A stretch of DNA of 64,000 nt from Eledone cirrhosa (Eukaryota): contig OZ024741.1 of assembly GCA_964016885.1 (NCBI GenBank), positions 96,162,001 through 96,226,000 of the forward strand, given 5' to 3'. A model generated the notes under the pieces. That model was given only the letters and a program-made list of their open reading frames with translations. It ran no database searches and was not told where the DNA came from. The position numbers and the translations under genes are program-made. Every line of letters begins with the position of its first letter. Within the stretch, counting starts at the first letter, position 1. Positions 27,524 to 28,706 of the stretch are shown here, in pieces.

Positions 27524-28706
27524 ATATATTTTAACTTTAATTATGTCTCATATAAAATAATACAACTGGCTTTCCACAAAATACATATAGTTAGCACCCC
27601 AAACACTTAAATTAGGTTTATACTAACGTATAACCTAATGTTTGTTGAGTGAGATGGTTACCAGTCGGAGTTTAGCTTAAAGCTATCTCTGTTATTGTAT
27701 TAAATATTTTACTCTTGATTTGGCCAGAGACTTTTATTTCCAGGTACCTTATAAACATGACTTTCCGTATTTATTACTGTTATGAGATATTGTTTGTTTT
27801 TTTGGGTATCACTTCTCTGTTTTTAGCCTAAGAAAATATCTATATGCGTGTGTAAATACTTACATGCATACATTTATTTTTTTAAATTAATTGAGTTCTT
27901 AACACGCGGAATTAATAATGGTTTTGAAATAACTAATTAACCCGCGTGTATTAAATATTTTACTCTTAATTTGGCCAGAGATTTACATTCCCAAATGCCT
28001 TTTAAAGCGTAACTTTCCGTATTTATTACAGTTATGAGATGTGGTTTATTATTTAGGTATCACTTTCTCTGTTTTTAGCCTAAGAAAATATCTATATGCG
28101 TGTGTAATTAATACACGCATACATTTATTTAAAAAAAATTAATTGAGTTCTTAACACGCAGGATTGATAATGTTTTTGAAAAAACTAATTAACCCACGTG
28201 TATATTATTTTACTTTTCTCGTGACTCGTGGTTGTCTCCCTTTTCCGCTTCGTGACGCTATGATACTTCCTCAGTCAAACGACTGCTGGAATTTCAAATT
28301 TGGCGGTCATTCGATGCGTGAAGAGACAACTTAGCGGACACGAAAATTAACTGCGGTAAGAAATGTTTTCTTATATCAAAGTTTAATGGGCTTCCACTGA
28401 CGATTTATAAGTGCCCACCTAAATATATTCTTACATGAAAATATGTTAGGCTTCTACATAAACTGGAAACATTCTCCCAACTTGTAGAAAACTTATAATG
28501 AAACAATTGTTTGGAAAGAGAGATATATTTTAATTTTAATTATGTCTCATATAAAATAATACAACTGGCTTTCCACAAAATACATATAGTTAGCACCCCA
28601 AACACTTAAATTAGGTTTATACTAACGTATAACCTAATGTTTGTTGAGTGAGATGGTTACCAGTCGGAGTTTAGCTTAAAGCTATCTCTGTTATTGTATT
28701 AAATAT
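27524..28706 (+). mobile_element. ORF-less hammerhead element with ~180-bp direct terminal repeats (period 999 bp)
   Basis: 27524-27706 repeats at 28523-28706; internal ~250-bp duplication; (TA)n flanks. Confidence 0.8.
28392..28516 (+). ncRNA. Type I hammerhead ribozyme with a two-hairpin branched stem II
   Basis: TTCCA CTGACGA t ttataagt-(~78 nt)-acttataa t GAA ACAATTGT T TGGAA. Confidence 0.85.

Follow-up and report, generated by a model that had tools for sequence, protein, structure and literature searches.

A non-coding hammerhead retroelement in the genome of Eledone cirrhosa and the position of its insertion ends relative to the predicted ribozyme cut

A non-coding element with near-identical terminal repeats and an internal hammerhead raises the questions of what kind of template it was copied from and whether the ribozyme cut that template. 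What role the hammerhead plays in Penelope-like elements (PLEs) is termed unclear (PMC8557442), and in vivo evidence for such a role has been described as lacking (PMC4209133). The element considered here lies on the + strand of a 64,000-nt stretch of the Eledone cirrhosa genome (assembly GCA_964016885.1, contig OZ024741.1, positions 96,162,001 to 96,226,000), which is called the window below and to which all plain coordinates refer.

A first-pass annotation had described direct repeats of about 180 bp with a period of 999, starting about 11 nt after a predicted cleavage site. The repeats were recovered as two 184-nt stretches (27524-27707 and 28523-28706, both +), offset by 999 nt and differing by a single mismatch, which is a common C/T polymorphism of the family, and the repeat does start 11 nt past the predicted cut position in this copy; the 184-nt length, however, is a property of the window copy only, and the 5' ends of the family vary. 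The 5' repeat (a pseudo-LTR) corresponds to the end of an upstream unit, from +12 past a missing hammerhead cut up to what would be the point where reverse transcription starts, and the 3' repeat includes the fixed 3' end of the family (28702-28706), the putative start of reverse transcription. The element is flanked by (TA)n at each end, namely (TA)n at 27505-27529 on the 5' side, which overlaps the first ATATAT of the element and makes the junction ambiguous by about 6 nt, and (AT)n at 28703-28783 on the 3' side. The claimed internal duplication of about 250 bp was found as a tandem block at 27696-28214 (period 252, 2.1 copies, 86% matches), in which copy A (27696-27947, +) is single in the sister family described below and in one subfamily, and copy B (27948-28214, +) is 86% like copy A. 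It is followed by the stretch at 28215-28360 (+) that had been called CpG-rich and promoter-like. The CpG richness was borne out by measurement (12 CpG within 146 nt, GC 47%, CpG observed/expected 1.5, against GC 28% and 0.81 in the remainder of the element) and the stretch folds strongly (z -3.8); it is a candidate internal promoter. The element is ORF-less, as had been stated, with a longest stop-free frame of 59 aa. In all, the window copy represents 1.18 units of a tandem monomer and carries one hammerhead only. A true LTR element was rejected because the repeat length differs from copy to copy, and an intron with a donor near 28355 and an acceptor near 27826 or 28078 was dropped, being kept in one subfamily and lost in the sister family.

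The branched hammerhead of the annotation was located as a type I hammerhead at 28388-28516 (+). A descriptor scan of the + strand placed its core at CUGACGA (28397-28403), GAAA (28500-28503) and GUU (28509-28511), with the predicted self-cleavage after GUU at 28511/28512, where the 5' ends of the family step up. Stem I comprises 5 bp (28392-96/28512-16), stem II is branched and occupies 96 nt (28404-28499), and stem III consists of 2 bp within the palindrome CAATTG. A 4-bp pseudoknot may join 28388-91 to 28413-16; this pairing is intact in all 11 aligned rows, with no two-sided changes there. The folding z score of the hammerhead was -4.2. The lowest-energy fold of the monomer hides the core (-26.7 kcal/mol, against -21.0 for the active fold), which is compatible with partial cleavage. 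An Rfam scan gave no hammerhead match at the element, and its hits in the window were microsatellite look-alikes of miRNA models.

Relatives were sought in 3.0 Gb of genome sequence, in which DNA searches returned 2,100 to 3,000 first-look candidates. An exact pattern of the 3' end plus TA had 964 matches genome-wide and its reversed control none, giving at least 964 insertions. The first 90 of these matches, all on one contig (C1) and chosen regardless of 5' end, served as a blind sample; two extended past the retrieved sequence and two formed a duplicate pair; 88 had a mapped 5' end. Their lengths ranged from 39 to 2609 nt (median 544), with 34 of 88 longer than 760 nt. Copies span 1.0 to more than 2.6 units with a common 3' end, dimers and trimers included. 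Among 40 copies picked by their 5' end, 37 stop at 28702-28706; two of the others stop near 28630 and one at 28665, possibly interrupted by later insertions. Insertion junctions confirmed (TA)n as the target of the family, and an inverted 5'-truncated arm was present at two of 167 loci examined, one of them (L088) clear. A fixed 3' end with a variable 5' end is the PLE pattern, and it follows that what look like terminal repeats are the stretch that a 1.18-unit copy contains twice. Circular permutation, for which the annotation had proposed to look, was not what the copies showed, their variation being confined to the 5' end. Nor were they without tandem ends and always attached to a PLE ORF, the outcome named there as contrary to its proposal: tandem ends are common, and a PLE ORF was joined to 0 of the 90 sampled copies. 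The nearest same-strand endonuclease fragments in this sample lie about 500 nt upstream, separated by a (TA)n junction. Five of the 88 copies (L147, L181, L206, L211, L223) are almost exactly one unit long, with the 5' end at the start site of the next unit, which may be due to blockage there or to AT microhomology.

A sister family, with 77% identity in the tail, has a 678-nt unit with a single block of the 252-nt type; a solo 3' fragment of it lies in the window at 55834-56029 (+). At another locus (L007:34-2679), units of an 81%-identical subfamily stand head to tail with a main-family unit, a mixed tandem that would represent either a nested insertion or a mixed template. The main family also forms a 64-kb array of 80 units on contig C2 (L100:7232 to L067:1092; C2:312267232-312331092), with 62 unit spacings near 747 nt and 17 near 999, the 747-nt units being chimeras of the 252-nt blocks A and B. 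This array, in which higher-order periodicities of about 2.5 and 3.2 kb are present, clearly grew at the DNA level, which is what would be expected if the family as a whole were a DNA-level satellite, or a true-LTR element, with the hammerhead as an inactive passenger. For the dispersed copies such an origin is already contradicted by their fixed 3' end, graded 5' truncation and copy-specific repeat lengths, and the array itself terminates at the 3' site of the family and contains decayed hammerheads; we regard it as highly improbable. Broken first boxes number 18 of 69 in the array, against five changes in 91 dispersed copies (Fisher p 4e-4). With about a quarter of its first boxes broken, the array is unlikely to be the master source, and decay in the array next to conservation in dispersed copies suggests that intact cores mark the sources of transposition.

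Conservation of the hammerhead in the dispersed copies (n = 91-98) amounts to 0 to 3 changes at each catalytic position, N7 being variable (C 33, T 47, A 9, G 2). Across 11 diverse copies, eight hammerhead pairs vary on both sides, and the covariation score was reached by 0 of 500 shuffles; the 11 rows represent some two or three lineages and hence few independent events. The stem III segment reads CAATTG in the main family and CGATCG in sister copies L122 and L139, each palindromic, and some sister copies have a one-base insertion there. A palindromic stem III is expected for hammerheads that cut as dimers (PMC4209133). By motif, conservation and covariation, a type I hammerhead is present in each unit of the family, and these patterns indicate that it is under selection.

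If the ribozyme cuts the RNA that is later copied, the 5' ends of insertions should carry a trace of it. In the blind sample, 15 of 88 5' ends fall between 2 nt before and 15 nt after the predicted cut, and every other 20-nt bin holds five or fewer; the cut site was read through in 79 of 94 passes (about 84%), with 15 stops. Each unit contains eight AT-alternating sites, and the one at +12 takes 13 ends in this sample, the others 0 to 5; five ends each lie near -676 and near the unit boundary, at other AT-rich sites. Across the genome, the +12 ATATAT has 86 TA-joined ends against 1059 read-throughs (7.5% of passes), and a control ATATAT 100 nt upstream has 11 against 959 (1.1%; Fisher p 1e-13), a comparison in which the control hexamer sits in a hairpin and is matched for sequence only, the read-through counts take in array units, and the two patterns may capture different subfamilies. 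The annotation's link between repeat start and cut site thus extends to the 5'-end distribution of the whole family.

A base-level view was obtained with a gapped pattern, for which the first 100 of 278 rows, corresponding to 31 main-family loci among the matches listed, were tallied. At these loci 23 ends lie at -2 to +8 (15 of them in stem I, and eight of the main-family ends mapping to -2), four at a TATA site at -18, two at -11 and two at -4, with none at -10 to -5. Ends at -2 and -4 would need untemplated or target-derived bases; for those at -1 and -2, the first T may be target-derived and one untemplated base added. For the sister family (first 100 of 144 rows, 28 loci), all 28 ends lie at -2 to +7, six of them exactly at +1, and none at -3 to -19; the -2 boundary was chosen after viewing the main family and then applied to the sister family.

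The same peak could have been produced by a reverse transcriptase that stalled at the folded hammerhead and joined at the nearest AT microhomology, cleavage having no part in it. The largest class of ends is indeed the one on the ATATAT at +12, 18 of the 28 sister ends lie on AT or AAT at +6/+7, near the foot of stem I, and stem II folds strongly. Moreover, for an anole PLE, cleavage was dispensable in vitro, ribozyme mutants inserting normally, and no RNA-seq reads ended at the site (PMC11167929). Against stalling, ends in each of the two families extend through stem I as far as the cut and fall off beyond it; removal of the +6/+7 class from the sister count still leaves 10 ends against 0; and the upstream copy of the hexamer takes 7-fold fewer ends. 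A spread of ends through stem I up to the cut appears to fit a free RNA 5' end better than stalling, which we consider an unlikely account of the peak. The stepwise rise of 5' ends at this predicted position, seen in two families and set against a matched control, points to real transposition templates having been cleaved.

The proposal that more than one unit of a circular or multimeric RNA had been copied was upheld for the number of units, the circular form of the template being putative. Neighbouring repeats were compared in 53 multi-unit entries, one locus entering twice, and showed 197 differences at 10,954 positions, of which 172 are private to one copy and 25 fall at common polymorphisms (five of these in one mixed-subfamily tandem). 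Repeats are 98.2% identical within a copy and about 93% between copies. This similarity, together with the private nature of most differences, is what rolling-circle reverse transcription of a ligated 999-nt circle would give, with solo copies made from cut linear monomers and the window copy among the products of the circle; circles have been demonstrated for retrozymes of coral, mussel and axolotl (PMC7229834). However, homogeneous linear multimers would yield equal within-copy identity, so that this measure fits either template, and the 25 differences at common polymorphisms, which include the sole one of the window copy, speak against a circle. Two tests based on ends disagree at the family level. 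Among TA-joined ends at +12, only two of 40 belong to a second pass, against some 18% expected if the risk were equal (p 0.016), in favour of a circle. Second-pass ends do occur at the cut, however, although a circle would lack a free end at that point: they were seen in four of 17 second passes of the blind sample (first pass, 11 of 77) and in the window copy. Circular templates are therefore regarded as possible though doubtful for the copies of more than one unit. The window copy begins beside the cut and its repeats differ only at a common polymorphism, which makes a linear dimer, cut at the first hammerhead only, its most likely template. A search of 158 copies for an ADAR footprint gave no A-to-G bias (51 vs 49). 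A search for RNA records with the element listed none, and four contig-only runs of one study that cover all 30 bins are uninformative about expression.

Hydra PLEs insert into (TA)n (PMC8557442), and fragments with Hydra-clade marks are abundant in this genome, one endonuclease query alone returning 48,602 first-look candidates; the Hydra label was given by eye for DKT, CxCX5C and a missing CCHH, against the criteria in PMC8557442. Pfam named none of the four PLE fragments in the window. One ORF-linked Hydra-type family was sampled in depth, and at 25 of 39 loci it has a long-stem-II hammerhead, 800 to 1,300 nt past the endonuclease stretch that was matched, with the palindrome CGATCG as in the sister copies and a short tail that ends in (TA)n or continues as a partial tandem. 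Its layout is shared with the retrozyme family, and no alignable sequence was found between the two across the 39 loci. No autonomous element with a sequence match was encountered in 272 loci and these 39, which cover one of many families in depth. Two candidate partners were rejected: a 524-aa Hydra-type frame beside L022 is the host of the insertion and lies on the opposite strand, and between sister copy L134 and the endonuclease upstream of it lies a (TA)n stretch. Elsewhere (L067:8230-8600), a Hydra-type 3' region contains a decayed long-stem-II hammerhead with a CAATTG stem III as in the retrozyme family, beyond which nothing could be aligned between the two; it also has what we take to be a YY1-like motif. 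The genome also contains fragments that are presumably Neptune- and Poseidon-like, and for this reason the movement of the family by a Hydra-clade PLE enzyme is considered only likely.

With fair confidence, then, the family is interpreted as a non-coding tandem retroelement copied by a Hydra-clade PLE from multi-unit RNA, with the ribozyme cutting part of the time. A source of at least two units would be transcribed, probably from the CpG-rich stretch of the upstream unit, and the enzyme would nick (TA)n and begin reverse transcription inside the RNA, about 195 nt past a hammerhead; internal initiation of reverse transcription has been shown in vitro for a PLE (PMC11167929). Copying would pass uncut hammerheads and stop either at chance AT microhomologies or on reaching a 5' end made by the cut, and the cDNA would be joined to the target at the RNA end or a few nt inside it, most often in the ATATAT that occupies +12 to +17. 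Cutting at the first hammerhead met would leave a 183-nt solo copy, and cutting at the second a 1.18-mer like the window copy. On balance, although with more reserve, we favour the further reading that the thousands of insertion junctions of both families preserve a fossil record of in vivo cleavage by the hammerhead, in which a minority of templates was cut and the cut set the 5' end, as the HDV ribozyme does for R2, the 3' end being set by the internal site.

By its sequence, the window element is best classed as an animal non-LTR retrozyme, an ORF-less PLE derivative with a large branched hammerhead. The class is already known, and its link to PLEs has been published (PMC7229834; bioRxiv 10.64898/2026.07.22.740005). 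As described in those two sources, animal non-LTR retrozymes share with the family low-GC tandem units that lack an ORF and contain one type I hammerhead each, occurrence as monomers, dimers and arrays, and a proposed dependence on PLEs. Retrozymes are delimited by absence of an ORF with GC below 45%, and the element has no ORF and a GC of 28% outside and 47% inside the CpG stretch; they are also expected to show at least two consecutive hammerheads, which the family does in its dimers, trimers and 80-unit array, the window copy having one. The units of 747 and 999 nt exceed the 170-400 nt RNAs of animal retrozymes (PMC7229834) and border the 51-972 bp range of consensus lengths (bioRxiv 10.64898/2026.07.22.740005); a unit range of '150 to >1000 nt' is also given (PMC7229834). 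The branched 96-nt stem II with its possible pseudoknot is unlike the animal retrozymes in the available text of both sources, in which insertion ends are likewise not mapped against the cut site. Self-cleavage and the expression of linear and circular RNAs are also expected of animal retrozymes, for which circles have been demonstrated (PMC7229834); for the present family, the genomic 5' ends offer indirect evidence of cleavage.

With the Hydra clade and other EN+ PLEs the family shares partial-tandem pseudo-LTRs, (TA)n targets, 5' truncation, an occasional inverted arm, and a hammerhead whose helix III is palindromic and whose stem II is preceded by an unpaired base (PMC8557442, PMC4209133). 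Unlike them, it has no RT or GIY-YIG ORF, and no matching autonomous family was found in the loci searched; a second 3' end 30-40 nt away, an optional feature of PLEs, was not evident, with 37 of 40 copies ending at one site. The anole Poseidon element PAc has in common with it a fixed internal start downstream of the hammerhead, AT-rich targets and an uncut RNA template, and differs in that for PAc cleavage was dispensable in vitro and no reads ended at the site, whereas genomic 5' ends step up there in the present family (PMC11167929). A ribozyme cut that defines the 5' junction is also known from R2 and the R2-derived non-autonomous SIDEs (PMC3774820, PMC3414825), which use an HDV-like ribozyme, insert into 28S and are copied from the RNA 3' end; the present family combines a hammerhead with (TA)n targeting and an internally placed start, and a minority of its ends fall at the cut. 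Plant LTR retrozymes, following the descriptions in PMC7229834 and bioRxiv 10.64898/2026.07.22.740005, are similar in being non-coding, in a unit of 600-1000 nt and in their repeat-flanked look. They carry a type III hammerhead in each LTR of fixed length, unlike the window copy, in which a type I hammerhead lies outside repeats of copy-specific length. A primer binding site, a polypurine tract and a 4-bp target duplication are further traits of the plant type, and any target duplication of the present family would be hidden within (TA)n.

Should the favoured reading hold, the balance of cut and uncut RNA would decide between a dead 183-nt solo copy and a multimer able to seed further copies, and the hammerhead would be of a long-stem-II, branched and probably pseudoknotted type that Rfam misses and whose layout is common to ORF-bearing Hydra-type elements of the same genome. 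LTR-looking ends can arise without a circle, and mapping of 5' ends provides an inexpensive genomic test that can be applied to any family of PLEs or retrozymes. A literature search that covered openly available main texts found no mapping of PLE or retrozyme insertion 5' ends to the hammerhead cut.

Several neighbouring features of the window were also recorded. A second ORF-less hammerhead element adjoins the main one (28788-29562, -), with 228-nt repeats 546 nt apart that are 95% identical and a palindromic stem III, and has relatives at 4873-5094 and 54413-55093. The latter is a fold-back insertion with two identical outward-facing hammerheads and a 159-nt perfect inverted repeat, the inverted-arm form of PLE insertions. 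Further type I hammerheads with a palindromic stem III and a stem II of 25-82 nt occur at 60479 (+), 1583 (-), 30822 (-) and 7425 (-), that at 60479 lying 928 nt past a Hydra-type endonuclease fragment (59092-59550) and that at 7425 preceding an RT fragment by about 1 kb. Inverted repeats of 1.7 kb (30671-32294 and 33925-35606, 89%) surround broken Hydra-type RT and endonuclease frames at 32279-33494. An unbroken 1033-aa frame at 14737-17838 (-) belongs to a non-LTR retrotransposon and has an RT and, at the C terminus, what looks like a restriction-like endonuclease; we take the element to be R4/Dong-like. A broken non-LTR element at 19678-23357 (+) is presumably RTE-like, and the fragment at 46032-46763 (+) is assumed to derive from a Tc1-like transposase.
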